Sequence record: ON470617.2
Direction: 5' to 3' (one strand)
Source: Escherichia phage vB_EcoM-813R1
DNA: 64,000 bases
The notes under the pieces were generated by a model. The model was not told where the DNA came from, searched no databases, and saw only the letters and a program-made list of their open reading frames with translations. The position numbers were made by a program, and so were the translations under genes. Positions 1 to 31,072 of the stretch are shown here, one piece after another; position 1 is the stretch's first letter; each line of letters opens with the position of its first letter.

Positions 1-988
1 GTGTACGCTGGCGGAACAGCAAGCACCTGACCGCCACGCCAGAGCTGCTTGTACTCAAGCTGGCGGCGCATTTCATACCAGCCCTGATCCAGTATCGAAC
101 GGTTTAAACCTGATTTTGCCCGGACATTGCGACCCGGATGACTTATCGTTCCCGCCGCTGACTTTGACATGTATTTAACCTTCAAATCCTCAATGACAAT
201 CATTGCGTGGTTTTTGCTGACGGTCGTTGTGACTTTGTGAAGGTAGTCCCTGCGGATATTTGCGATACGGGAATGCAGTCGCTGTATTTTGCGTTTCTGC
301 TTCTGCCAGTTGTTGCTGAATTTGACCTTGCGGCTTAACTGTCGCTGAAGTCTCGCCAGCTTCTTCTGGTTTTTCTGAAAACTATTTACAGGTTCAAAGA
401 CTGTGCCATCTGACAGCGTGGCGAGTTTAGCCACGCCAGCATCCAGTCCGACCATTGATGCTGAAGGGTGAACAGGAGTGGATACCTCTCTTTCTGTCTG
501 AATACTGATGTACCACTTACCGCAGGACTGGCTGACAGTAACATTTTTCACAATACCCGTGACCTGACGGCTATTCCGGTAGCGCATCCAGCCAAGTTTC
601 GGCAGAAAAATACGGCTGTTTTCCTGATCGAGCTTAACACCCTGCGGGTAGCGGAATGCATCATTCTGTCCCCGCTTTTTGAATCGGGGAAAAGCTGCCC
701 GATTCTGGAAGAAGTTTTTGTAAGCCCGCTCAAGGTCTTTCAGTGACTGTTGCAATGGCTGTGAGGGAGAATCTTTAAGCCATTCGGTTTCAGTGTCTTT
801 TTCCACTCAACCAACCAGGAAGCCATTTTCGTGTAAGGGATGTATTTTTTACCGGCCTCATGATTCTCATTCTGAAGCGCCAGAGCACGGTTGAAAACGA
901 AACGACAAGCTCCGGCAAAGCGCCTCATTTGATGCTCCTGTTGACCATCTGGTTTTAACCGGAATTTGAATGACACCTGTTGTTTCAT
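1..988 (-). mobile_element. tnpB: IS200/IS605-family TnpB (OrfB)-like gene, N-terminal ~330 codons; 3' end lies beyond window start; interrupted by in-frame stop at 740-742 and a frame change
   Basis: ORF 740..988 starts MKQQVSFKFRLKPDG...CRFVFNRAL (TnpB N-terminal signature); minus-strand translation of 300-420 in another frame reads ...SDGTVFEPVNSFQKNQKKLARLQRQLSRKVKFSNNWQK, typical TnpB. No tnpA seen. Confidence 0.7.
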
Positions 989-1086
989 GTCACTATTTTA
1001 AGCAAAAATAGCCGGGAGGAAAACTGTGCCTTATATCCCCACTATGAGGAGCGTAGGGGCGGCACATTGGATAAGGCGTAACAGGG

Positions 1087-4073
1087 ATGAGCTTAAGCGA
1101 TCAGGTGGTAATGGCCACCAGCATAGAAACGCTGATCGAGCTGCTAAAGAACCTGCCCGATTATGGGCGGGTTTCGTATGTGGTGACAGCGAAGGGAGAC
1201 GAGGTAAAAACAGCGTTTGATATCGTCGATGCCTCAGCTATTTTGGTATCCAATACTCTGGATGGGAAAATTAATCCTGACTATCCCCGGGAACTTCAGC
1301 CGCGCGACCGGACCCGCGCATCCAGCCTTCTTCAGGTTAACCAGATATCCAAAGATTTGCGGCCTGCTCAGCTTACCGATTCCGGATTATCCAGCCATGG
1401 CGCACCGATAATTGGTGAGGACAATGCAGTTGAGTCAGGTAATGGACGTACCATGGGGATCATTAAAGCCTATCAGGACGGTAATGCGGATCGGTATCGG
1501 GAGTACCTGATTGAACATGCGACCGAATTCGGCATACGTACTGAAAAGGTTGAATCAATGACGGCTCCGGTACTGGTGCGCCGCCGGTTAACGAAGGTTG
1601 ACCGCGTTCAGTTTGCCAAGGACTCAAATATTTCTGATCTTCAGGAAATGGCAGCCAGTGAAAAGGCTTTTGTTGATGCCGACAGCATAACACCGGCGAT
1701 GATGGCGCTGTTTAATCCGTCAGAAAGCGGAGATCTGCTTAGCCGCAGTAATGACGCGTTTATTCGCGGATTCATGACGCAAGTTGGTGCCACACAGGCT
1801 GCTGGCCTTGTAACGGAAGATGGGCGACCAACACGGCAACTTGTTGACCGTATACAAAACGCGATCTTTGCCAAGGCATATAAGGATGCGCGCCTGGTAA
1901 GGATGGTTGCAGAAGAACCTGATCCGGATATGCGTAATGTTCTGACGGCGCTTAATGCGGCAGCCAATGATTTTGTCCAGATGCAGGCTTTATCAGGAGA
2001 AGCGCACAAGCAGGCTGTGACAACTATTGTTGATGGCATTGAGACAGCGGATAGCCTCGATAAAAAGGCGCTGGCGGCATTGAAAGATGCGGTAGACCTG
2101 GTAAGGCAATCGAAGGAGTCAGGCCAGCATATTACCGATGTTATTGCTCAGGGGGATATGTTCAGCGAAACAGCCCCGGAAGTGAAAGCTCTCGCGTTGT
2201 TCATCGTCGCGAATAACCGTAGCGCGAAGCGTATGGCCACCGCCTTTAAATTGATGGCTCAACGTATCAATGATGAGTTACAGCACCAGGGCCAGGCGCT
2301 GGGGGATATGTTTGGCGGTGGTGATGTGTCGTTACAGGATATCCTTCGCCAGGTGTCTCAGGAACTGGAAAACGAAGGCATGCAAGGGATATCCGGCGGT
2401 CTTTTCGAGTCCGTTTCCGGCGGTAGTTACAACGGTGTTGCTCCATATACCAGCTTGCTATTACATCGGGCATCCGGCATCAAAGACATTATTCATCTGA
2501 TCAGGCTGCTTTCCCGTACAGATCCCCAGGATGAACAGCTTGTACAAGTGCTTGCGCATTTTGTTCGAATGCCTGTTGCCGACGTGAATAAATGGTGCCG
2601 ATTATTCGGTATCAGCAATTCGTTACTTCGCGGCTTGTTAAATCACGCATCCTCCCTTGGGCGCGATGGCTTTGACGAGATAGCGCAGGCGATAAAAAAC
2701 GGAGATATGCCACCAGCTATTGACTGGTTTTCCATTCGCCCAACCAGGGTGAAAGCATTCCTTAGCGCGGCGCATTCGGCATCACCATTGGCAGAAATGG
2801 TTCAGAGGTTGTCGCTCATATTCACAGACCATACCGCGTTGGGTGATCTGACTCTGGACGAGATGAAAGAAGCCTCCATTCAGTGGGCCGATCAACAAAA
2901 TGAGGTTAACTCAGACTTCTTGCCAGCATTCAGGAAGGCCGTTAGTAAAGCGGATGATGCCCGTGGAATTCTGAAGGCATTTAAGGCATTGCAAAGTCGT
3001 GTTAATAAACATGTCGGTGATATCGATGGGGTAACGGCGGAAGGCCGGGATATCCTTAAAGAGCACGGCATAACGCCAGAGTTTATTGATGAGATCAGGA
3101 CTGATATGCAGCGTGAGGTCGTATCGTCCCTGCAAATCGTAGCCAGAGCGTTGGCGGATGCTAATCCGAAGAGTGCGGCCATTGTTAACCGGGTTATTGG
3201 TGATATTGAAGCATCGGAGGGCATGGGGGCGCTGAAACTCTTCCTGTCGCGAGCGTTTAATCCTAACGGCAATATTCTCCTGGCATTATTGGTGAGGCTA
3301 AAAAGTATGTCAGTGAAGAAGAACTTGAGCAGCTTGACCAACTACTTAAGCGATTCTCATATAACCCGCAGACACGCTGGCAAATGAATCAGCGAAGTAT
3401 GGGTTCGGTCCACGAGAAAGTGTTATCTGCCATGAACAGTGCGATCGCAAACTCATCCGTATCTGAAGAAAAAGCTCTTGAGTGGGCCGACTCTTTTATC
3501 ACGGAAGAAGTGGAAGAAGCCCGCGCTGGACAGAATGGTGGGATAGACCTGCGCAAGGAACTTGCTGATATTTATCGCCTGACCGGCGGGAAAATATCGA
3601 CCTTATCAAAAGTGGTTCACCACCAGGGAAGGGCATATGCAAATCTAAATGGTGTTGTTGCTGTCAATTTGAACGATGAAAATGCAAGTGCACTGTGGCA
3701 CGAGCTGGGTCATCATCTTGAGTACAGTAACCCTGGTTTGTTAGAGAAAGCCCGGTCATTCCTGAAGGCCAATGTTGAAGGGGATAAGCCATCTTTCGTC
3801 AATATCGGTGGGCGTGGCAAGCCTGAATGGTGCTTCAGATCTCGATTGAGTAATATTTATATGGCGAAGGTATACCCGCCAGCCTCAGTAAGTAACACCG
3901 GGAAAATTCGGCAGAAATCACCGACTATTTCCAAAACGTCAGCAACGGAAGTATTCTCTATGGCTCTTCAGTTGTATCATGACAAAGAGGCCGCTGCCGC
4001 ATCACTGATGAATGGTGACGGATTGCTGGAACTGTTATTAGGTGTGGCAAAGGAGCTAAATAATGCAGATTAA
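1087..4073 (+). CDS. Very large multidomain protein (~995 aa) with N-terminal ParB/Srx-like motif and C-terminal HExxH metallopeptidase-like motif; split by an apparent frameshift near 3270-3390; lies where P1 has the distal darA-operon genes (ddrB region)
   Basis: ORFs 1087..3387 and 3384..4073. N-terminal INPDYPRELQPRDRTRASS resembles the ParB NPxxQPR box; ALWHELGHHLEY in the second ORF; the second ORF's frame reads through upstream as ...YSPGIIGEAKKYVSEEELEQL..., indicating one gene. Confidence 0.6.
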
Positions 4074-4371
4074 AATCGCAGCGCCATTAGGCGGAGATGC
4101 CATTATCGAATTTGATGATAATGAAGAAGTTTCCGGGCGTTTAAGCATTATCTCCGGTGACATTACCGAGGACATGATCGCTGAAGCCATAGCTGGGGCA
4201 AATCCCAATAGCTATATGGGATTCGTTAACACCCTTGATGCTCCCGCAAGTGATGTTCTCCGAACGCTGCATCTTTACGCTGGCTGGTTTGTTGATTGGC
4301 CAGCAGTAGATGGTGGCGATGAGGACGACGACGATGATTTTGGTGATCATGTAGACCAGATCGTATATTGA
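4063..4371 (+). CDS. Small acidic hypothetical protein (102 aa), C-terminus DGGDEDDDDDFGDH
   Basis: ORF overlapping the end of the upstream large gene by 11 nt, same strand (operon-like). Confidence 0.45.
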   Translation: MQIKIAAPLGGDAIIEFDDNEEVSGRLSIISGDITEDMIAEAIAGANPNSYMGFVNTLDAPASDVLRTLHLYAGWFVDWPAVDGGDEDDDDDFGDHVDQIVY

Positions 4372-4425
4372 AGAAATCCCGCCAATCGGCGGGATTTTTA
4401 CCTCACGAGAAGCTTTTTTCTGATG

Positions 4426-5496
4426 TCAGCCAACAGTGCTCGTGCAAATCTCTTGGTGGTTTTTCGACAAATGCCTCTTCAGCCACATCCTGCCAGGGAT
4501 TTGTTTAGCCCATTCAGCTATAGCGTTATGGTTTGCCGAGAATAACGGTATTGTATAGGCCTTCAGCCAGTCTAATGTGCTGGAGTTGTGTTTTTGAGCG
4601 TGATGTTTCGCATGGTGTTTGGCGATCACGATCGTAGGCACTACCCATTTACTACCGTCAGTCATTGTGAAGTGCATATTACGGGGAACAGATGACTTTT
4701 CCATCAACTCCCGAATCCCGGGAAATTTCCCCAAGATCAATCGGCGATATTCATCGCTATTGCGCCCACCAAACTCTTTGGCTTTGAATTCAAGATATGC
4801 TTCAGAAACGAGAGGTGAATCCTCTGTGTTTAGAGTTATCGCCGTGAAAAAACCAGCAGGATTGTTTTTACTATGGGCCAACCGGTGATGCGAATCATAA
4901 AAGTACCCTTTCTCGCGTTCCGATGGTTTCGACAGCAACAGCAGGCGCGAGTCATAATTGGTTAAATTGCCAGTTATCACTGCATGAGCGCGATCGCTGA
5001 TTTCCGCCGAGTTAATAACGATGAAAAGATCGTGCGGTCCAGTAAAACCAGCCAGAGACTCTTCGTTATTCAGACAATAGGTTATATAGACGCATCCCCA
5101 TGTTTCACTGATATGCACCAACCCTTTGTCAGGGTGTATTCTGAAATAATTGCCAAGAAAAGGGTGTTTTTGGGTAACTCGCTCCCAATAACGGAACATA
5201 TAGTCAATTATTGTTTTTCGACTATCGTTAATCGCAGGAGAAACAACCACTGTACGGGAACACGAATACAGTATTGTTTGCAGGATGCTAATCACTGCCA
5301 CAATAGAGGTTTCCCCAATACCATGTGGTGTGGTGGCAGTGACTTTGGCTCCGGTGTTCTTTATCGCGTTAATAATTTTTGCTTGATGAGGTGTTAACTC
5401 AATATCAAGCAACTCTTTTGCTGCCAGTTCCCAATTGTCTTTATACCGTTCTATCAGTGCTAACCAGGCAGATTCATTCTGTATACGATTAATCAC
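4426..5496 (-). CDS. Terminase large subunit (PacB)-like ATPase-domain paralog with degenerate Walker A/B and no nuclease domain
   Basis: Aligns from its N-terminus with the PacB in this window (28397..29881): shared KGYFYDSHHRLA / [12 protein letters not shown] and ITLNTEDSPLV / [12 protein letters not shown]-loop GHGTGKS is replaced by PHGIGETS and Walker B IIDEAS by VINSAE. Confidence 0.7.
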   Translation of the reverse strand: MINRIQNESAWLALIERYKDNWELAAKELLDIELTPHQAKIINAIKNTGAKVTATTPHGIGETSIVAVISILQTILYSCSRTVVVSPAINDSRKTIIDYMFRYWERVTQKHPFLGNYFRIHPDKGLVHISETWGCVYITYCLNNEESLAGFTGPHDLFIVINSAEISDRAHAVITGNLTNYDSRLLLLSKPSEREKGYFYDSHHRLAHSKNNPAGFFTAITLNTEDSPLVSEAYLEFKAKEFGGRNSDEYRRLILGKFPGIRELMEKSSVPRNMHFTMTDGSKWVVPTIVIAKHHAKHHAQKHNSSTLDWLKAYTIPLFSANHNAIAEWAKQIPGRMWLKRHLSKNHQEICTSTVG

Positions 5497-6397
5497 TTTC
5501 CACCTCTTCCGTGGTGTTTTCTTGCAGTTCTGTTAATGCAGCACGACATAGGTTCCGGGCATTGGCTATAGCCACACTTTTGACTTCATCCGTCATCGTG
5601 CAGGTAATGTACTGATCGAGTTCTTCAGCGCGGATGATGCTTTTGCCAATCAGAAACTGTATTTGCCATAGCAGATCGGCATCCATAATCAGAATTTCTG
5701 CCGGGCCTTCAGGGCCAGCCGGGAAGGAAACATAAGACTGTTTGCCCAGGCCGACAACTCGACAACTTGCTTCAAGAATTGCGCGCTTGAGGTCTGACTT
5801 TATAACGGAAACAGGTTGATTTTCACCAGTGATTACGCCGTTGACATGGAAAGGCATGTAGCTTGAAATACGCTCCACTTTCCACACGCCAGCAAGCGAT
5901 CCTTCATGCAGCACAATGGGGGTAACCGCGAGTTTCATCTCACCATATAACTGCTGGCAGATAGCTGGATTGCTGAATACATCTAAAGGCTCACATTCAA
6001 ACAGCGGCGCAATCTGCATGAGGTCCATCATGGTCATCCCTGGGGTACGAGCAGTAATGAATTTGCGCATACCAGTATCCATTGCGCTCCAGATTGCTAC
6101 ACCATGCTTTTTGCTCACTTCTTCAGTAAAGCCAAGGTGGCACATGATGGTTTTTTCGATAGCCAGATCGGAGATAGAAACCTTTTCGCCAGGTACACCA
6201 TCATTATTGATGGTCACTTCGACACTCTGGCCATTACGCAGGCGGTATTGAATTGTTTTAGTATTTTGTGCTGCCATAGTCTTTTCTCTGCTTAAAAACT
6301 GATGTATTGCGCCTTCAGGTGGGTCAGGAATGTTTTCCCACCAGCGAAAGCAATATCTCGGGGTGTTCTGTTCGTTAAAAACGCGTTCCATTGCCAA
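5489..6397 (-). CDS. Hypothetical protein (302 aa) translationally coupled to the terminase-like paralog
   Basis: Long ORF overlapping the downstream gene start by 8 nt; no recognisable motif; start may be the internal Met (MAAQNTK) at about 6280. Confidence 0.5.
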   Translation of the reverse strand: MAMERVFNEQNTPRYCFRWWENIPDPPEGAIHQFLSREKTMAAQNTKTIQYRLRNGQSVEVTINNDGVPGEKVSISDLAIEKTIMCHLGFTEEVSKKHGVAIWSAMDTGMRKFITARTPGMTMMDLMQIAPLFECEPLDVFSNPAICQQLYGEMKLAVTPIVLHEGSLAGVWKVERISSYMPFHVNGVITGENQPVSVIKSDLKRAILEASCRVVGLGKQSYVSFPAGPEGPAEILIMDADLLWQIQFLIGKSIIRAEELDQYITCTMTDEVKSVAIANARNLCRAALTELQENTTEEVESD

Positions 6398-6474
6398 CTT
6401 TGGCGTTTTTTAGCGAGTTCGTGCTTTTGTTGGCGTTTGGACCACCGCTTTTCTTTCAGTCGTTTTTTACTCAT
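6292..6474 (-). CDS. Possible small basic protein (60 aa), uncertain
   Basis: ORF MSKKRLKEKRWSKRQQKHELAKKRQ... directly downstream of ssb; overlaps the annotated start of the 302-aa gene, so one of the two starts is wrong. Confidence 0.3.
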   Translation of the reverse strand: MSKKRLKEKRWSKRQQKHELAKKRQSWQWNAFLTNRTPRDIAFAGGKTFLTHLKAQYISF

Positions 6475-6479
6475 AAACT

Positions 6480-6968
6480 CTAAAACGGAATATCGTCTTC
6501 AAAGTCCATTGGAGGTTCGTTATTGGCGCTGCTCTGAGGTTTGCCACCACCGCTGTATTGCTGGTGGTTTTGAGGTTGGTTTGACTGCCCCCAGCCATTT
6601 GAGGACTGTGAATCGTCGCGGCGAGCGCCGATCATTTGCATGGTGCCGCCCTGGCTGACGATAATTTCCGTCGTGTAACGTTCTACACCGGCGTCATCTG
6701 CCCACTTACGGGTTTTAAGTTTCCCTTCGATGTAGACCTGAGAACCTTTTCGTAAATACTCACTCGCAATTTCAGCAAGTTTTCCGAACAAAACGACTTT
6801 ATGCCATTCTGTTTGCTCTTTCTGTTGGCCCGTTTGCTTGTCGCGCCATGATTCATTCGTTGCGATGCTGAGTCTTCCGACCGCGCCGCCATTTGGTATA
6901 TACCTGATCTCCGGGTCTTGCCCCAGGGTGCCAATCAGGATGACTTTGTTTACACCGCGTTGTGCCAC
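6480..6968 (-). CDS. ssb: Single-stranded DNA-binding protein
   Basis: 162 aa, OB-fold SSB sequence with Gly/Gln-rich linker and acidic tail ending MDFEDDIPF. Confidence 0.95.
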
Positions 6969-6988
6969 TTATCTTACCTAATAAAATA

Positions 6989-7005
6989 AATTAATTAGAG
7001 CAATA
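6989..7005. promoter_or_regulatory. C1 repressor operator-like site between divergent ssb and lyz
   Basis: AAATTAATTAGAGCAAT; reverse complement ATTGCTCTAATTAATTT, one mismatch to the P1 operator consensus ATTGCTCTAATAAATTT. Confidence 0.6.
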
Positions 7006-10783: not shown

Positions 10784-13700
10784 ATGAACAAGCTATCTAT
10801 GGGGGTGTTTCGCTGTTCAAGTGTCAGCGAAATATTGAAATACATTAGGGCAATAACATCTCACCGAGCGCCGATTAGATACGGCGTGGAAAAGGTGGAA
10901 GGCAAAAGCTATGACCGACTACGCCGGGAGGCGAATCAGAAGGCGATTGATTTGCTTAATTCGCTGGTGGACGGCGCGACACTGACAGATGAACAGCGCC
11001 AGATCCTGGCTGGGTACACCGGTGAAGGCGGCATTGGCGGGTCCGTCTCCGAATATTACACACCAAAGCCGATCGCTGAAGGTGTCTGGGAGATCATGAA
11101 GCTCTACGGCGCGGACGTAGGTAACACTCTGGAACCATCGGCGGGAACCGGCGTTTTTAATGAGACAAAACCGGTTGGTACGGTGATGACCGCGACTGAG
11201 ATCAGCAGTGTTTCCGGTCGTATAAACCAGCTGTTACATCCGGAAGACAGCGTACAGATTTCCCCGTTCGAACAACTGGCTGTAAGCACGCCTAACGATT
11301 CATTCGACCATGTGGTGGGTAACGTTCCGTTCGGTGGTCGTGATAACACACGCAACATCGATAAACCTTACGCAGAAGAAACGGACATGGGGTCTTACTT
11401 CATGCTCCGCATGTTGGACAAGATAAAGCCTGGCGGATTCATGTGCGTGATTGTGCCGCCGTCCATTGTTTCAGGTTCAAACATGAAGCGGTTACGCCTG
11501 CGTCTATCCCGTAAAGCTAAATTTCTTGGCGCTCACCGCTTGCCTACCGGTACTTTTGACGCAAACGGGACCAGTACGGTCGTTGATGTGGTGCTGATGC
11601 GTAAACATCCGGCAGAGATGGCTGAGAAAATCCCCTGGTGGATGAAGGCACTCTTGAATCGGCAAATGTGCTTTGGCCAACGTTTATTTCTGGCAAGTGG
11701 TTTGAAAAGGACGGCCGCCGGTTTGTTCATGGTACTCAGGAGAAGGGATTCCAGGGCGTATTGAGGTTCGTGCCGACGGGCAGATTGATAACCTGGCTCT
11801 TAAAGCGAAGCTGATTCATCGTTTCGAAAGTCGTATCGACTGGTCTTTGCTCGATATGGCTGAACCGTCACCGACCGCAGATGTTGTTGATGAAGGGGAA
11901 ATGCGCCTGATTAATGGCGTATGGCAAAAATATGCTGGTGGTCGCTGGATTGAAGCTGATGCCGGGAAGGAGCTGAAGATTGATGTTGCCAGTTATGGCG
12001 CGGATAGCTGGGAGGCTCTTCAGCGTAACCTGACTACCACAGAAGGTCGTCTCGGCATGACATTTACCCAGATGGCAAATGTCCGCGATAAGTACACCAC
12101 ATCAATCAGCGACGATATGGTGCAACTGGTGGACTGGATTAACAGCCAGCCTGAAAAATACCGTGAACGCTTGTATCGCGGGGCGATGATTGGCCGGATG
12201 TTAATTGAATATCAGGATATGAAGGCCGCCGGGCATAGTGCTGAACAAATCGAACAGCAGCGCCTTTCTCTGGTATCCCGTTTGCAGGCAGAGATTGACC
12301 GCTTTGGTAATCCTGGTCGCGGTCCTATAGCGAAATTGTCGGGGAGCGGTGCGCGCGCCTGGTTTGCTTTCCGTGGTGCGATTAAGCTGGATGGCACTAT
12401 TTCAGACGAGCTGACAGGAAAGCTGGTTACGCATGACTCCAGCGCCAGTTATGACTCCACCAGCTATCAGGACACCCTGCGTTATCTCTATAGCGATCTT
12501 ACCCGCGATCCAATCCAGCTCGATGATTTCCGCCTTGCGTTTACCGGCGAACTGCCAGCCAGTGATGACGAGTTGCTTAATTTATTGGCCAGCACCCTGG
12601 TATTGCGGTTTCACCGTATGGCGGGATTGTTCCGTTTGCCCGCGCCACCAGCGGCGACATTAACGAGATAGTGGCTCCAAAACAGGAATTCCTCGCCACG
12701 CTCCCCGACGGTCCAGTAAAGAACAACGTCCTTAATCAGCTGGCAGCGATCGAAGAGAAGCGCATCAAGACGCCAGCAGAGAATATCCGGTTTAAGCTCA
12801 ATAGCCGTTGGTTCGACCGTTCCGTCATTCTGGAATTTTTGCAGGAAAACGGCTATCCGGATCTGCGCTATGTGCAGTCAGTGCAGCTGGAAGGCGACGA
12901 AATGGTTTCTGACACCTATCACGGTGGTGATGGCCTGTTCGTAGGACACCGATACGGTGTCGTCCAGCGCAAGGATAAAGAAACAGGCGAGATCCGCTAC
13001 GAGTGGGACCGTAAATCAGGTGAAAACGCGACCGGGTTCCCGGCACAGCTGGAAAAGTATCTCAATGGTGCGCGTATCGGTGGCAAAGATAGCGCGACGG
13101 CGAACGGCTACCGCGAGCAGATGGCACTGCTTGAGGACCAGTTCAATAAGTGGATCAAGACGCACGATCGCTACGATGAGTTGGTTGCCAAATACAACGA
13201 TGTGTTCAATAGCAATATCCCGTATGAACACTCTGGCGATCCGCTTGGGTTGAAGGGATTAAGCGGTAAGCGCCAGCCATTTGATTACCAGAATAGCGAG
13301 GTGCGCCGACTGTCCGAAGATGGGCGCGGCATCCTGGGCTTCGGCACCGGGCTGGGTAAAACGACGACCGCGCTGGCGCTTGAGGCGTTCAACTATGAGA
13401 ACGGTCGCTCCACCCGTACTGCTTATGTAGTGCCTAAAGCAGTGCTGGAAAACTGGTATTACGAAGCAAAAGAGTTCCTGAGTGAAGAGGCATTCAGTAA
13501 CTACCTGTTCGTCGGTCTTGATGTGCTGATGGATGGCGATCAGATTCGCCAGGTGCCGGTGCTCGATGAGAACGGTAAACCTGTTCTTGGTACTGATGGC
13601 ACTCCAGTTATGCGCGATGCTCTTAAGCTGGCAGATGAAGCCACTATCACGGCGCGGATGAACGCGATCCCGCACTCAAATTACCGTGCAGTCGTGTTTA

Positions 13701-16700
13701 CCAAAGAACAATACGCCCGCATTCCGCTACGTGATGACACCGTAGATGAGCATGCACAGGATATGCTTTATGACTTCGTTGCCGCTGGGCGCGTAGCCAG
13801 CGCAATGGATTCCGATTCCCATCGCAAAGAGGCGGCGCGTCGCCGGGTATTGTCGGAGTATTCAGATACCGGCACCGAAAAAGCAGAGAAGTATCCGTAC
13901 TTTGAGGATATGGGCTTCGATAGTGTGATCGCTGACGAAGGTCACAACTACCGCAATAGCTATAAAAATGGTCGCGAAGCGTCACAACTGGCCTATCTGC
14001 CCACCAGCGCGGTGGCGCAATCGGCGCGGGATATGGCAATTAAAAACGCGTACCTGATGAAAAAGAATGGTGGGCGCGGACCGGTTCTCCTGACTGCAAC
14101 GCCAGTCGTTAACACCCCGATCGATGCATACAACATGCTTTCTCATGTTCTGCCGAAGGAATACTGGCAGAAGATGGGGATCTACGGTCCTGATGACTTC
14201 GTTAAATTCTTCGGCAAGACCAGGCTGGAAACGGTACAGAAAATCAGCGGTGAAGTTGAAGAAAAATGGCACTGGTGGGCTTTGAAAACCTTGATGCGCT
14301 GCGCGGTATATTCCATCGCTGGGTAACGCTTAAAACGGCGGAAGACGTTAAGGATACCGTGGAGATCCCGGAACTGGACGAACACCAGCAGGATGCACCA
14401 CTTACTGAAGAACAACTGGCGGCGTATGAAGAATTGCGTCAGCAGGCGGAAGCGGCGGCCAAAGCCAACAATGGCGTAACGACCTCGGTCAATGAAGACG
14501 GCGTGATTGAGCACGAGAAGGCCCGTCCGATCTTCTCAATAATCAGGGATATGGACCGCGTATGTACTGACATGGACCTGTACTATCGCCGGATCACCTA
14601 TCGTTTCCTGCCGGAGTACGCCGATGCGGTGCAGCAGCTGGCGGACAGTTTGCCTAAACAAGCCACCAGCGAAGACGACGACAGTGATGATTCAATCACG
14701 CAGCAATCGCAATACTCCCTGATAGATAAGGGCGAGTTTATTCAGTTACAGGTTCCGGAAGCGTTCGAGCAGGAAGTGAATAAGCGCCTGGCCAGGTTTG
14801 GCATTGACGAACAGACCGTAACTCACCCCGTTACGCCCAAATACGCGAAGCTGATTGCCACGCTGAAGGAGTTTTTCCCGGAAGGTAAGCAAATCATCTT
14901 CACCGATGAAAAAACGCAGCACCAGAAGCTCAAGCGCATTATCTGCAATGCTCTTAACCTTGAACCTTCAAAGGTGGGGATACTGAATGCTCAGACGGTT
15001 GCCGAGGCAGGTAAAACCGGTAAGAAACTGAAAGCGGTTAAACCGCCGAAAGAGTTACCGGATGAACCAACAGATGCACAGATAGCGAAATACAACGAGC
15101 AAATGGCTCTGTATGACGCCTATATCGCGCAGCAAAATGAAATGTCGTTGGGCGGTCTGGAAAAGATTGCAGCCGACTTCCAGGAGGGCCGGACTCCGAT
15201 CATCATCTGCAACAAAAAGGCAGAGGTGGGTATCAACCTGCATCGAGGAACGACTGACATCCATCATCTGACGTTGCCATGGACTCCAGCCAGTATTGCG
15301 CAACGAAACGGTCGCGGTGCCCGAGTTGGCTCCAACCGTGCAAGCGTTCGCGTTCACTACTACTGCGGCAAGGGTTCTTTCGATGAATACCGACTGAAGA
15401 CGCTGAAGCGTAAAGCAGGCTGGATCTCCGATATCCTCCGTTCAGATAAGTCAGAAATGGAGAACGCCGACGCCAACGATATGATCGAAATGCAGATGTA
15501 TACCGCTAAGGATGATGGCGAACGTCTGGCAATGATGCAGGTTCAAATGGATAAGGCGAAAGCTGCGAAACGCGCTCGCCAGAAAGAACAGGCTACTATC
15601 GACCTTCAGAACTACATCAAGGTGCAGCACGCAGCTGGTGAGGATGTGGAGGTACTTACCGCTGAATTGGAGCGAAGCAAAGCGGAACTTGAAAAGACCA
15701 CCGCCGACGTCGCCAAATTCAAACAGGCGGTAATGGCCAAAGCAGCTGATAACGCAGACTGGAAAGCCCGCTGGGGTAGCGTCCATCACACAGACCGTAT
15801 GTTGTTAGCACAGTATCGCGCGTCGTTGAAAAGCGCCATTCAGCGCAAGGCTAATATCTCTCAGGCCATCTCCCGCTATGAGAAATTATTGAACCGTACT
15901 CAGAAGGCCGCGACGGATATCAAACGCCTGCGCCCGCAGGTGGAGGATGCAATAAATAAAGGCATTCTGGATGTTGATCCTGATCTGGTTAACCATGCGA
16001 ATGAGTTCCTTGTTATCGGCGATCGCTCATGGCGTGTAGGCCAATACTACGATTGTGCCGGTGATATCGTTCGCATTAAGTCGCTGGACTTCGACAGCCA
16101 GCGCGCAGACGTGGAGATCATCTTTACCTTCAAAGGCACCAAATCGGGTAACTGGGATGTGAAGACGCTGGATAAACAGGTTGATGTAACTCCCGATGAA
16201 GATGCTGTTATGCAGAAAATCAGTGGTGGCGTCTCCATCGCCGGGATTAACGACATCATTTCCTGTGACGATTTCTACCGTTTCCAGCAGCGCGGCATGA
16301 TCAAAATAACTGACTCGTACGGCGTTCAGACTACAGAGTCAGGCTATAGCATTGATTTTGTTGGTACCTATACGGACCCACTGAAGCATGCGGTTTACCC
16401 GGATCGCCGTGACGGCGCGCTGAAGTCGTCAATTGCAAAATGGGTGCTTGGTATGATGTCGGAAGGGAATAACCGCCAGGTCCGTTTGGCAGAAGTATTC
16501 CTGACTGAACTGTTTGGCTCCAATTATGGCGAGGTAATCGCGTCATACGGAGATACTCTATCCCCTGAAGCACTTCAGGAGAAAATAGCGGATTCGATCG
16601 CCAAAATGCCGGAGAAAACAAGCCAGGGGCTACTCGTAACGGGGATTCTGAACTTGAGGTCACCAATGCTATTTTCGGTACCCATGAGTTCCGGGCGTCA

Positions 16701-17546
16701 GATTATGAGATCACCACAGCACAGTTTGGCACCATTGGCATTTACAGCAATAAAGACGAGATCAAGCAGGCAATGGACGCAGCAAGTGCGCGCATTGCAG
16801 CAGAACGGAAAGCCAATCTGAATCATGCAGTCGCCGCGCTGACTCAATCGTGGGTAACAGCAATCAGGGAGGCCGCCACCACAGGAAAAATCACACCGGC
16901 AATTGCGGATGTCGTAAACGACGGCTCTAAATTTATGGATGCCTATAAAATGGATGCGGTGCAGTTGCCATCAGCCTATGGCCAACTCAGCTATCGCATA
17001 ACCTACAACCTGGTATCAATGTTTACTGACCTTGCCATCCTTGGGCTGGTGGACCTTAACGAGGTTACGCCGGAATTACTCAGCATGCGCAAGAATCATG
17101 TGGAGATATTGCAGAGAATTAACACGGTTCTTGCCGGGCGCACCGATGAAGAGAAACAGGCCGACGCTGATCGGATAAACCTGGCCCTTGGCAACATCAC
17201 GGAGGAAGAAATTGCCGCCAGAAACGAGAAACAAGAAGAGTTATCATCAATACAGGGTGATGCCACCAGCATAGCTCAGTCTCTTGGTCTGAATTATCGC
17301 GTATCCACCGCCGATCTGAAGATGATGTACGCACCAAAATTCGCCGCTGGCGAGGTATTTGGGCTTCAGGAAGCCTCAGGCATGAAAGGCGTTCTTTTCC
17401 GTGCGAAAGACGCAATCAAGGCGAAATTCGGCGCTCGCTGGCTGCCAGCGAAGGCGAAGAACAGCGATTTCCCGGGTAACTGGTGGATTATCGAGACAAA
17501 ACACAACGTGGCGGACGTTCTGGCCGTCATCCAACAATACGCATAA
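10784..17546 (+). CDS. darB: DarB-like antirestriction methyltransferase-helicase (~2254 codons), split into five ORFs by apparent frame changes
   Basis: N6-adenine MTase motifs LEPSAGTGVF and VVGNVPFGG; SNF2-type helicase motifs GFGTGLGKTT, VIADEGHNY, LLTATPVVN. Frames change near 11700-11850, 12590-12600 (at CCTGG), 14270-14320 and 16770-16820; total length matches P1 DarB. Confidence 0.85.
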
Positions 17547-28396: not shown

Positions 28397-29881
28397 TTAT
28401 TCATTAAGCCATGCCAGAGCTTCATCAACCTGCGCTTCGTCTTCGACGCTAAGCACTTCATCCTGGGGAACATAATCAGCCAGCATAGCGAAACAATATG
28501 TATCCCAATGGTCTGGTGAGTGCAGGTTGAGTTTTTTCTTCATATCCTCCTTACTCATCACCTTCCATTGACCTGCGGAGTTAATCCCTACAGGGATTTT
28601 CGACGCTTCCTCAATAGTTTCATTACCCTTATCCAGTCTCATACGACCAGATTTTACGGCCTCTGCGGCTTGAACGTTGGCATAAGCACGTTTATCAAAG
28701 TACAGGCTCTTATCTTCACGGCTATGCATCTTTTTACCCCAGCGTATACGCTGTACGGTAATACCATAATACTCGTACATCAGATCCGCCGTTGCTTTAC
28801 CCAGGCCATCGCCGTCTATCGCTATGGTGATATTTGGGAATCGCTCAGGATTACATTCTGCGAAAATTTTGGCGGCAAGCTGCGTTTCTGTAACGTCTGT
28901 GTATTCCAGCATTCGATAGTTGATTACACGGCGTTTATTTCGCTGGCCGGACACCATCATGATATTGATAACGGACTTATCCCGTCCCGTACCACCAGCA
29001 ACGTCCACACATGCAAGCCAGCCCCATCCTTTTGCAATCTTGACTTTCCGCCGCGTTGCACGTTCAACCTCATCACGTCCAAGAAGGAAGCCATCCTGTG
29101 ATTTAGGGAATAGGCCGCGTACCTTAATCATGTACATAGGGTTATCACGCCCGCCGTACTCCGCCAGCTTCATTTTGATAAATGCTGGCGTTACCAACGG
29201 TGATTCCTCACTGTTAAGCGTGATCGCCGTATAAACGCCATCAGGGTTACCAGGACGCTTGGCCAGTTTATGGTGTGTATCGTAGAAATAGCCGCTTGGG
29301 CGTGTAGGCTGTGACAGCAATAAGATGCGGTTATCCTGTCCGGTAAGAGCACCGGTGATGATACCGAAAGCTCTATCACTGACACCGGAGGCTTCATCGA
29401 TAATATACAGAAGATGATCTGCGTGTTCACCGGCGAGAGCTTCTTCACTTCCCAGACGAAAGCCCTTCGGTACTACAGTCCATACACCTTTACCAGTAAT
29501 CTCATAGAAAGCGGTTTCTGTCAGAACAAAATAATCAGCAAGCCATGGGAAACGGCTGGTGGCAGTAGCCCAGTTTATCTTGATGTACTTGAATATACCG
29601 GTCATTACCTGCTGAATTTTGTTCGCAACGATAATGGCACGGGCACCTGGATACATGATTATGAACAACATGATCATGATAGAAGTCATGTCTGATTTCC
29701 CGGTACCGTGACCAGACGAAACAGATGTCTTGCTACCCTGTTCCTGCACAGACTCAATAATCAGATCCTGCTGCCAGGTAGGTGTTTTGCCGAACAAAAC
29801 ATCAGCGGCCGCAATCCAGTCATAACGATATAGCGCCACCAGCTCGCGCCAACGTGGATCCGTTACGCAACTTCTGGCCAT
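28397..29881 (-). CDS. pacB: Terminase large subunit PacB
   Basis: 494 aa; Walker [13 protein letters not shown], Walker [12 protein letters not shown]-terminal nuclease-like domain; immediately downstream of pacA. Confidence 0.85.
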
Positions 29882-31072
29882 TAATCATCATCCCCGTATA
29901 GCTTGCGGGTAACTTCTTCGTCTTCCTCCTCGTCTTCGTCCGGTCTTGTTCCAGCCATGGGTCGTTTGATACACCTTCAGTATCAACATCTCCATAACCG
30001 CCTGTATCAACGATATCGGCGATTTCTTCCCTACGCTGCTCAATCCACAATGCGGCATCGGCGCGGCGGTTGGCGGCCCGTTCTCGCGCAACTTTGTCCA
30101 GATCTTCAAGAGAAGGGCCACCGACGGCTGTTTGCCTTTCCTCATCATCGGTATTGGTCTTAGGAGCACGCAGATCGGCTTTGATTTGCTCCAGCATCAG
30201 GGGCGGCACTTTCCCGCCATGCGCCTCGATGAATTCAGCTGCTTCCAGCACTGACCAGTTATTTTCACGCTTTCGTTCGTATGCCAGCTTAACAATGCCA
30301 GCTTGCCCCATAGACAAAGCGTGCTTTTCCGCCTCCCGGCTTTCTTTTCGATAGTTATTCCGGATGCTGTAAATGGTGTTGATCAGGCTGCTTATCTGCG
30401 CGGAACAGCTGTTTAGCATGCTCGCGATACGGTATTCAGGCGGAGTACCTTCATCATCGTCTTTTTGCTGATCGCGCATTTCCTGCACCAGGCGAATACA
30501 CGTATCCTGGCGTTCTCCAGCATAAGGAGATGAGAAAGAGACTTTTCCAGAAGAGTGGTTTCCAGAACATCGGCCCCGGACCGACGCAACATAGCGCGCG
30601 CGGCCTTCCGCGCTTCAACGTTATCTATCAGGTAATCGCCAGCTTCGAATTCAAAGCGTTCACCATCATCATCCAGGGTGTCGCGTTCCAGGCGATCACG
30701 TAAGGTCCGGTGGGCGCGGGTGATCACGTCATGATCATCAGAACGATCATTTATGCGCTTATTCTGGCGCTTCGCGTTCTCGACTGCGGCACTGACAACA
30801 GCATTAACTCTTTGTTTTTCAGCCATTTCAGCCACAATGTGATCACCTGCACGTTGATCATTAGCGTGATCAATGATCATGCTTTTTAGTGGTTTTCTGA
30901 CAGGCTTATTTGGCTTACGGCTGTCCGCTGTTCCGGTGTCTTCTTTGAATGCACGGAGATAACGACGTGCGGTGTTTGGGTTGAGATTAAACTCGGCGGC
31001 ATATTGTGCGATGGTGTAACCACCATCTCGCGCCAGGCGAGCAAAATTCTTCTTGTGATCGTCCCAGGTCAC
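29820..31072 (-). CDS. pacA: Terminase small subunit PacA, apparent frameshift between two ORFs
   Basis: ORFs 30413..31072 ([28 protein letters not shown]..., HTH-like N-terminus) and 29820..30488 overlap in different frames; contains the pac hexamer cluster. Confidence 0.75.
30701..30880. other. pac: pac packaging site: two clusters of TGATCA(N) hexamers with Dam GATC sites inside pacA
   Basis: GATCAC, TGATCAC, TGATCAT, CGATCAT at 30701-30751 and TGATCAC, TGATCAT, TGATCAA, TGATCAT at 30839-30880. Confidence 0.7.

Follow-up and report, generated by a model that had tools for sequence, protein, structure and literature searches.

What does a second PacB-like protein do behind ssb in an element that already encodes the active large terminase PacB? 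The locus lies in Escherichia phage vB_EcoM-813R1 (sequence record ON470617.2), of which we analysed a stretch of 64,000 nucleotides (nt; hereafter the window). The window is a P1-like phage-plasmid; a megablast search with positions 4000-7000 returned P1-type phages at 96-99% identity. Its minus strand carries two open reading frames (ORFs), at 4426-5496 (356 amino acids, aa) and 5489-6397 (302 aa), just where the original prediction, made from the letters alone, had placed a catalytically dead terminase paralog and its partner. That observation is confirmed overall, and its interpretation is partly supported. We have hardly any doubt that the first gene encodes a 364-aa non-catalytic paralog of PacB, accessory, under selection and coupled to isaA, which joins the fold of the large terminase subunit (TerL) to a C-terminal domain and belongs to an old clade of dead relatives. 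The features on which this rests are:

4403-5496, minus strand: inactive PacB paralog ("pseudo-terminase"), 364 aa; in the window an ORF at 4426-5496, 356 aa, GTG start
4711-5496, minus strand: TerL ATPase-fold domain of the paralog (residues 1-262), homologous to the N-terminal domain of PacB
5305-5334, minus strand: degenerate Walker A, TTPHGIGETS, with the P-loop Lys of PacB replaced by Glu
5002-5031, minus strand: degenerate Walker B, DLFIVINSAE, with the Asp-Glu of PacB replaced by Ile-Asn
4403-4689, minus strand: X domain, ~95 aa, C-terminal, in place of the nuclease domain; frameshifted in the window from 4496
5489-6277, minus strand: isaA, 262 aa from the ATG at 6277
5489-6397, minus strand: longest isaA ORF, 302 aa from the TTG at 6397
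5489-5496, minus strand: overlap of the isaA stop and the paralog start, 8 nt, GTGATTAA
28397-29881, minus strand: pacB, the active large terminase and the closest active relative of the paralog in the window

A PacB paralog without catalytic residues

In a BLASTP alignment with the window's own PacB, the paralog matches from residue 11 onward, over 266 residues with 36% identity (E 4e-55); this bears out the predicted homology across the ATPase domain. The catalytic motifs have been replaced: Walker A reads GTGKSD in PacB and GIGETS in the paralog, and Walker B reads IIDEAS in PacB and VINSAE in the paralog. The change from GKS to GET and the loss of the acidic pair were thus described correctly, but the substitution of the pair by NS was one residue off, since the alignment pairs DE with IN. 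In an alignment of 50 active relatives with two dead proteins (alignment A2), the Walker A Lys is found in 98% of the active relatives, the Walker B Asp in 98% and the Glu in 100%, and none of the three is found in either dead protein; likewise lost in both are a conserved His (column 237), a conserved Arg (column 223), and the Asn/Gln of the coupling motif. This coupling (C) motif, Q/N-P-T in the PacB-like family, reads K-P-S in the paralog. A motif table of 12 dead and 23 active sequences gives the same picture, as its Q/N is kept in none of the dead-clade members; across the dead clade the position of the P-loop Lys is taken by E, R, H, T, M, C, or I, and the canonical motif never occurs.

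The RNase H-like nuclease domain is missing, as predicted: the paralog ends ~100 residues past the ATPase domain, its tail of ~95 aa (the X domain) is unrelated, and most of the conserved nuclease-domain columns of alignment A2 are absent or substituted. Since P-loop Lys, Walker B acids and nuclease are all lacking, the paralog should be able neither to power nor to cut.

The fold itself is retained. An AlphaFold2 model, for which a terminase alignment was used as input, has per-residue confidence (pLDDT) above 90 at residues 10-260 and low confidence after residue 265, and the top Foldseek matches of this model in the PDB are the TerL ATPase domains of Sf6, P74-26, HK97, D6E, and T4. The paralog thus shares its fold with P1 PacB and with the TerL ATPase domains of Sf6 gp2, P74-26, HK97, and T4 gp17, with homology over ~260 N-terminal residues, and it retains several signatures of the PacB family (the Q motif, ESLAG, GYFYDSHH, EDSPLV, and YGGR). 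The stretch most strongly shared with PacB, residues 176-225 (60-68% identity), runs from the coupling motif into the next segment (GYFYDSHH, EDSPLV). Among the PHROGs, the paralog falls into phrog_5902 (unknown function, E 6e-171) and matches phrog_2 (terminase large subunit) at E 3e-9; searches against Pfam, NCBIfam, PADLOC, and PDB sequences gave no match. Of what makes a functional TerL, then, the paralog has the ASCE P-loop fold of the TerL type; missing are the Walker A Lys, the Asp-Glu pair of Walker B, the C motif, the nuclease domain, and a location in the packaging operon. Unlike PacB, it sits in an early accessory operon, is dispensable and is patchily distributed.

Sequencing errors, distribution, and selection

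Over 49.9 kb the window runs collinear with pIso00270_01 (NZ_CP095126), an E. coli plasmid, and is 99.87% identical to it. The two differ by 23 substitutions and 41 indels, and all 41 indels are 1-nt deletions on the window side (for example, at 3279, 4496, 11632, 14262, 29942, and 30506). Such deletions split ddrB (1087-3387 and 3384-4073; deletion at 3279), break darB (10784-17546) into several ORFs, and split pacA (29820-30488 and 30413-31072); frameshifted or "split" genes of the window are probably to be taken as sequencing artefacts. The deletion at 4496 (GGGG to GGG) shifts the frame of the final ~30 codons of the paralog gene. Among the matches listed, nearly all plasmid copies and all copies in E. 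coli genomes span the extra base (match lengths of 1118 vs 1117 nt, or 1095 vs 1094 nt). The corrected gene ends at 4403 and encodes 364 aa (WP_023352832.1); the predicted 356-aa ORF is real as an ORF of the window, but its length is a product of the deletion. The full C-terminus is borne out by a 52%-identical ortholog of the D6 type (see below), and the catalytic motifs are still absent once the missing base is put back.

With so many 1-nt deletions in the window, one of them within the paralog gene, the gene might be suspected of being a sequencing artefact or a decaying duplicate. We regard this as almost certainly wrong; it is refuted by the intact copies, by the motif table and by a survey of genomes. 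All 34 paralog copies that we fetched are intact, and the same dead motifs are found in each of them and in the 52%-identical ortholog, which itself keeps the length and the C-terminal domain; the loss of catalysis is thus no basecall artefact. Nearly full-length genes are found in 119 plasmids of PLSDB and in 100 E. coli genomes. The ratio of nonsynonymous to synonymous substitution rates (dN/dS) is well below 1, with values of 0.15-0.3 among P1-type and 0.07-0.1 among D6-type copies. Judged by these sequence patterns, the paralog is an accessory gene under selection, not a decaying one. Loss of catalysis together with purifying selection suggests that the protein acts by binding.

The gene is widespread and patchy at the same time. 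Of the plasmids in PLSDB, 336 have isaA and 120 the paralog, which reaches at least 80% query coverage in 119; among 5,426 complete E. coli genomes, 100 (about 2%) contain the paralog, at 99 places on plasmids and 2 on chromosomes. In IMG/VR we found it in 19 P1-type loci and 13 loci of D6-like phages. About a quarter to a third of the P1-like phage-plasmids keep it, whereas P1, P7, SJ46, RCS47, and D6 do not have it. The expectation that the pair is conserved in related P1-like elements therefore holds for these 120 plasmids and for the D6-like phages, and fails for the roughly two thirds of isaA-bearing plasmids in which the paralog is missing. Public annotation calls the protein "hypothetical protein" or, wrongly, "terminase large subunit"; among the matches listed, records of E. 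coli genomes have only the former.

Two PacB alleles, 88.5% identical to each other, occur in these elements, the phiW39/SJ46/RCS47 type (that of the window) and the P1/P7 type. PacA differs less, with 96% identity between a window-like plasmid and P1. Presence of the paralog is independent of the PacB allele, and all four combinations of allele and presence occur.

isaA and the ssb transcription unit

The 302-aa ORF had been called unrecognisable. It is P1 IsaA: the two proteins are ~95% identical, the ORF belongs to phrog_2326 (E 8e-149), and it has the same position downstream of ssb. Its start is likely the ATG at 6277, giving the 262 aa annotated by PGAP. Profile searches with IsaA found no Pfam family and no significant match in the PDB (best E 0.19), its AlphaFold2 model has a pLDDT of 37, and PADLOC had no match for the paralog, IsaA, or the 60-aa ORF listed below. 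The idea that IsaA or the paralog mimics DNA was dropped, as charge and isoelectric point (7.3 for the paralog, 5.1 for IsaA) are unremarkable. Protein P0020, considered as a distant IsaA homolog, turned out to be an error-ridden contig of a normal P1-type isaA; it does show an empty slot downstream of isaA.

The predicted stop-start overlap of the two genes is there and measures 8 nt, and a GAGG Shine-Dalgarno sequence for the paralog sits within the 3' end of isaA, an arrangement that suggests translational coupling. The link is also kept over evolutionary distance. Upstream DNA is available for 30 loci of the P1 and D6 types, and in each of them the paralog lies directly 3' of isaA and overlaps its stop; between these two phage lineages IsaA is 47% and the paralog 52% identical. 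One of the 30 is a case of partial loss (L016, 68-1869), in which an IS21-family element (IstA/IstB) has left only the last 48 codons of isaA, with the paralog intact. The dependence runs one way, since isaA is often found without the paralog, in about two thirds of the plasmids that have it.

The pair was predicted to be a two-gene operon. The surrounding features place it at the tail of a longer transcription unit:

6292-6474, minus strand: 60-aa ORF, 3' of ssb and 5' of isaA; PGAP annotates it in the near-identical plasmid (WP_032163662.1)
6480-6968, minus strand: ssb, first gene of the transcription unit (ORF and annotation)
6988-7004, minus strand: C1 repressor operator (equivalent of Ossb/Op21), 20 nt upstream of ssb, 1 mismatch to the consensus
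4374-4397, unstranded: GC-rich hairpin, -20.7 kcal/mol, z -4.9, flanked by the stop of hxr (4371) and that of the convergent paralog gene (4403)

We looked for a sigma-70-like promoter on the minus strand between ssb and the paralog and found none, so that the pair is best read as the distal part of the ssb unit, in the order C1 operator, ssb, 60-aa ORF, isaA, paralog, and terminator. The hairpin, which lies directly 3' of isaA in an element with an empty slot, is probably a bidirectional terminator. The 60-aa ORF is rich in lysine and arginine; in the original P1 annotation, isaA runs through its region in another frame, from a GTG start, to give 320 aa. The P1 annotation also places ssb promoters and the C1 operator Ossb at this unit, and in the window matches to the C1 operator are far more frequent than chance would give (8 observed vs 0.02 expected). 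By this arrangement, the ssb unit should be kept repressed in the lysogen and switched on early upon induction. With a C1 operator upstream of ssb, the paralog is probably made early, at induction or infection, ahead of the late PacA and PacB. The genes of the latter lie ~23 kb away from the paralog gene, which has ssb upstream of it and no small-terminase neighbour.

A polymorphic cargo slot between isaA and hxr

Comparison with P1 shows the limits of the slot that contains the paralog gene. DNA homology to P1 extends from ssb through the exact stop of isaA (window 5488) and returns at 4369, in hxr; between these points the window has 1.1 kb and P1 has 95 nt, IS1, and isaB. The original prediction saw in the IS1-free state of the window the possible ancestral genes. 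We asked accordingly whether IsaB is a remnant of the paralog and rejected this: there is no DNA homology, the BLASTP hit (E 0.08 over 57 residues) is not convincing, and the two proteins belong to different PHROGs (30162 vs 5902). The same BLASTP hint (E 0.08) made IsaB a candidate carrier of the X domain, which failed as well, as hhalign of the X-domain profile against IsaB gave a probability of 0.5%. From these comparisons, the P1 slot is a different cargo (IS1 and an unrelated isaB) and not a disrupted paralog; an ancestral state therefore cannot be claimed.

The slot (window 4372-5488) is polymorphic among related plasmids. It is empty in loci L008 and L004, and holds a gene for a HipA-family YjjJ toxin in L005; a plasmid-borne ompC porin gene takes the place of both isaA and the slot in L006, and a DUF2829 (Tad2-like) gene is inserted between ssb and isaA in L007. 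The isaA-IS1-isaB interval is a published hypervariable region or cargo hotspot of P1-like plasmids, named "isaA-IS1-isaB" or RD-2 (PMC9603915, PMC6906374), and CRISPR interference showed that isaA and isaB of P1 are non-essential (PMC10695390).

Across the loci, genes linked to anti-defence are found on both sides of this region. On the far side of hxr it is adjoined by ddrB of the dar operon, classed as antirestriction (PMC10695390). Directly upstream of isaA, a Tad2-like gene (Thoeris anti-defence 2, DUF2829, PF11195, E 1e-20) is found in 11 of 12 D6-type and 3 of 19 P1-type loci (for example, L027, 6527-7213, and L007, 2091-2768), which suggests that P1/D6-like phage-plasmids carry an anti-Thoeris sponge. 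D6-type loci differ widely in this Tad2-like gene, which is strongly mosaic among them (58-100% identity). Directly upstream of ddrB, where P1 has ddrA and darA (window 1-1040; L048 1-1042), the near-identical plasmid has a transposase gene; the dar operon of this element may have been truncated by an insertion sequence.

An accessory gene in a hotspot could be aimed at competitors. The dead subunit would then poison the terminase of co-resident or superinfecting P1/D6-like phages, or of satellites with a PacB-like terminase, and P1-like and D6-like plasmids do have hosts in common. Some mobile elements are known to disturb packaging through proteins that bind a terminase subunit (SaPI Ppi, PICI Rpp). 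These SaPI Ppi and PICI Rpp/TerS-like proteins act on packaging by binding, the kind of mechanism that we propose for the paralog; they differ from it in that the small terminase is what they target or stand in for, in that their folds are unrelated and in that their genes belong to satellites, whereas the paralog is derived from a large terminase and encoded by a phage-plasmid. We nevertheless think a weapon of this kind highly improbable, since a gene behind a promoter region with a C1 operator should be silent in the lysogen, where exclusion is needed, and since the protein would also poison the closely related PacB of its own element.

D6-type orthologs and a wider dead clade

The D6-type paralog, 52% identical to that of the window, has dead motifs of its own (GIGRPQ, IIVDSA), keeps the C-terminal domain and the full length, and is coupled by an overlap to a D6-type IsaA (47% identical). 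Phage D6 itself has isaA and no paralog. The PacB proteins of P1 and D6 are 56% identical, close to the 52% between the two paralog types, and each paralog is 33-38% identical to either PacB in every pairing. The duplication therefore predates the split of P1 and D6, and the paralog has since been under constraint like that on the enzyme.

These identities bear on the possibility that the paralog is a packaging regulator or poison subunit, which binds the PacA/PacB of its own element (for example, by joining the ring or sequestering PacA) and so tunes the timing or specificity of pac cleavage and headful packaging. Pseudoenzymes often regulate active paralogs, and several observations would fit: the protein is a PacB paralog aligned from the very N-terminus, the 60-68% identity in residues 176-225 is compatible with a retained protein-protein interface, and it is apparently expressed ahead of the late pacAB operon. 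However, P1, P7, D6, and about two thirds of the isaA-bearing plasmids lack the paralog and all package normally; it occurs with PacB of either allele (100% or 88.5% type); it sits in a cargo hotspot far from pacAB; and it is no closer to the PacB of its own lineage, with no sign of co-evolution since a duplication older than the P1/D6 split. We therefore consider a regulator of packaging doubtful.

Across 1.84 billion representatives, an exhaustive phmmer search turned up 623 relatives. The nearest full-length relatives that we examined (~500 aa) all keep GKS/T, DEAS, and QPT. Degenerate motifs are found in a group of ATPase-only proteins of 230-270 aa (P0141, P0142, P0144, P0148, P0149, P0178, P0195, and P0262), and also in P0145, which has another C-terminal extension, and in P0160, which has an N-terminal X domain. 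In a neighbour-joining tree without support values, the 12 dead sequences form one clade nested among the PacB-like terminases, a grouping to which long-branch attraction may have contributed. With degenerate Walker motifs, no nuclease and a place in this separate clade, the paralog is a member of phrog_5902 and of the dead branch of PacB paralogs.

The X domain has a history of its own. It is kept in the D6-type ortholog, matches the C-terminus of phrog_17928, and is found as stand-alone proteins of 106-123 aa in unrelated phages (P0267; L051, 4977-5297; L053, 4971-5303); in P0160 it lies N-terminal to the dead ATPase, a permuted domain order. These occurrences indicate that X is a small mobile domain. 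It has no match in Pfam and no significant match among PDB sequences (best E 1.2), and AlphaFold2 confidence is low across it. The stand-alone genes are in early regions, near DnaB and ORFs that we read by eye as Gam-like and RdgC-like, and one of them adjoins a putative Mu Gam-like nuclease inhibitor (also read by eye).

The divergent dead relatives come from phage contigs of 33-86 kb, in which their genes occupy early or accessory regions. For example, in L042 (5330-6792 of a ~86-kb contig) a 263-aa dead PacB-like protein gene overlaps the stop of a gene for a Ref-like RecA-dependent nuclease (PF16786, E 2e-34). This contig also has an IsaA-like gene (phrog_2326, E 2e-25), placed 3 kb upstream and preceded by an ORF that by eye may be a dUTPase. 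The dead relatives in L044 and L054 have yet other neighbours; the 177-aa ORF that follows the dead ATPase in L054 was taken by eye for a degenerate nuclease domain, which BLASTP against PacB did not uphold (E 10). Searches of viral contigs for the context of P0142 and P0144 gave no loci. A gene of the Ref family is present in the window too, annotated at about 24.2-24.8 kb of the near-identical plasmid. In the D6 lineage, the module follows a putative dUTPase ORF (a by-eye reading) and has no adjoining ssb.

Such neighbourhoods raise the possibility of an accessory role in DNA metabolism, in which the paralog and IsaA, as partners of Ssb or a Ref-type nuclease, would engage intermediates of replication or recombination, the paralog serving to bind DNA or as a scaffold. 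In its favour are the operon that ssb and the paralog have in common, the translational coupling of the L042 member to the Ref-like nuclease, the position of X-domain proteins near DnaB and the Gam-like and RdgC-like ORFs (the latter two by eye), and the putative dUTPase ORF ahead of the D6-lineage module. The protein has, however, no ATP-binding motifs and no recognisable DNA-binding domain, ssb does not adjoin the D6-lineage module, and the distribution is that of a dispensable, patchy gene; we think such a role unlikely.

A possible role in counter-defence

Our own proposal, which we hold as tentative, is that the paralog is a binding-only mimic of the terminase ATPase domain that works, together with IsaA, in counter-defence, with Avs-type sensors as a candidate target. 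Few phage proteins are as conserved as the large terminases, which bacterial immune receptors recognise. The paralog would work purely by binding, in mimicry of the terminase ATPase domain, and would form an early accessory anti-host module with IsaA. It would occupy or blunt a factor of the host or of a rival element that recognises the large terminase, and Avs-type receptors would be the obvious candidates; with no ATP binding and no nuclease half, the mimic itself would not support packaging. Avs-type STAND receptors recognise the TerL fold, of which the paralog keeps the ATPase half, without the nuclease domain and the nucleotide site, and the terminase chain of PDB 8dgc (Avs3 bound to a terminase) is at rank 34 among the Foldseek matches of the paralog model. 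A more specific version, in which the pseudo-terminase is made early with IsaA and saturates or jams terminase-sensing receptors before PacB appears, is rather improbable.

The context favours an accessory anti-host role over a core regulator of packaging. The latter is disfavoured because P1, P7, D6, and most relatives do without the gene, because its presence does not depend on the PacB allele, and because it lies in a cargo hotspot; an early anti-host role is indicated by the C1 operator, the Tad2-like neighbour of isaA, and ddrB beyond hxr. The early-region positions of stand-alone X-domain proteins, one of them beside the putative Mu Gam-like inhibitor, fit such a role too. The Tad2/DUF2829 gene, a neighbour of isaA in most D6-type and some P1-type modules, is not a homolog of the paralog.

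Several points weigh against a mimic in counter-defence. Every binding partner named for the paralog is putative, the protein has no similarity to a known anti-defence protein, and our literature searches turned up no description of a terminase-like decoy. The same slot also holds cargo without a link to anti-defence (HipA-like YjjJ, OmpC, IS1), so guilt by association is weak, and the window lacks the Tad2-like gene. Binding of a decoy to an Avs-type sensor might just as well trigger the sensor as block it. Divergent members have other partners, such as the Ref-like nuclease in L042, which point to DNA metabolism. Finally, the early timing derives from the P1 annotation and the operator match.

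Significance for P1-like phage-plasmids

Literature searches found no paper on dead, pseudo- or decoy terminases, on pacB paralogs, or on this gene; as far as we can tell, no terminase paralog that is maintained and selected while catalytically dead has been described before. We see in it a pseudoenzyme branch within a well-known family rather than a system of a new kind. It reaches about 2% of the complete E. coli genomes, has orthologs in a second phage-plasmid lineage, and belongs to the broader dead clade. In P1, isaA has the same place after ssb as here, followed there by IS1 and the unrelated isaB and here by the PacB paralog, so that what P1 has as isaA-IS1-isaB is one of the variants of a cargo slot.

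Should the paralog prove to be a decoy, or to inhibit terminase sensing, it would represent a new class of counter-defence, and as an early decoy it would be the first decoy-of-self counter-defence made from a packaging enzyme; the wider clade of dead PacB proteins, including the X-domain fusions in both orders, would then be a decoy family. If it is a regulator instead, it would provide a natural dominant-negative tool for the assembly of the P1 pacase. Either way, the long-unexplained isaA of P1 gains a partner that can be tested.

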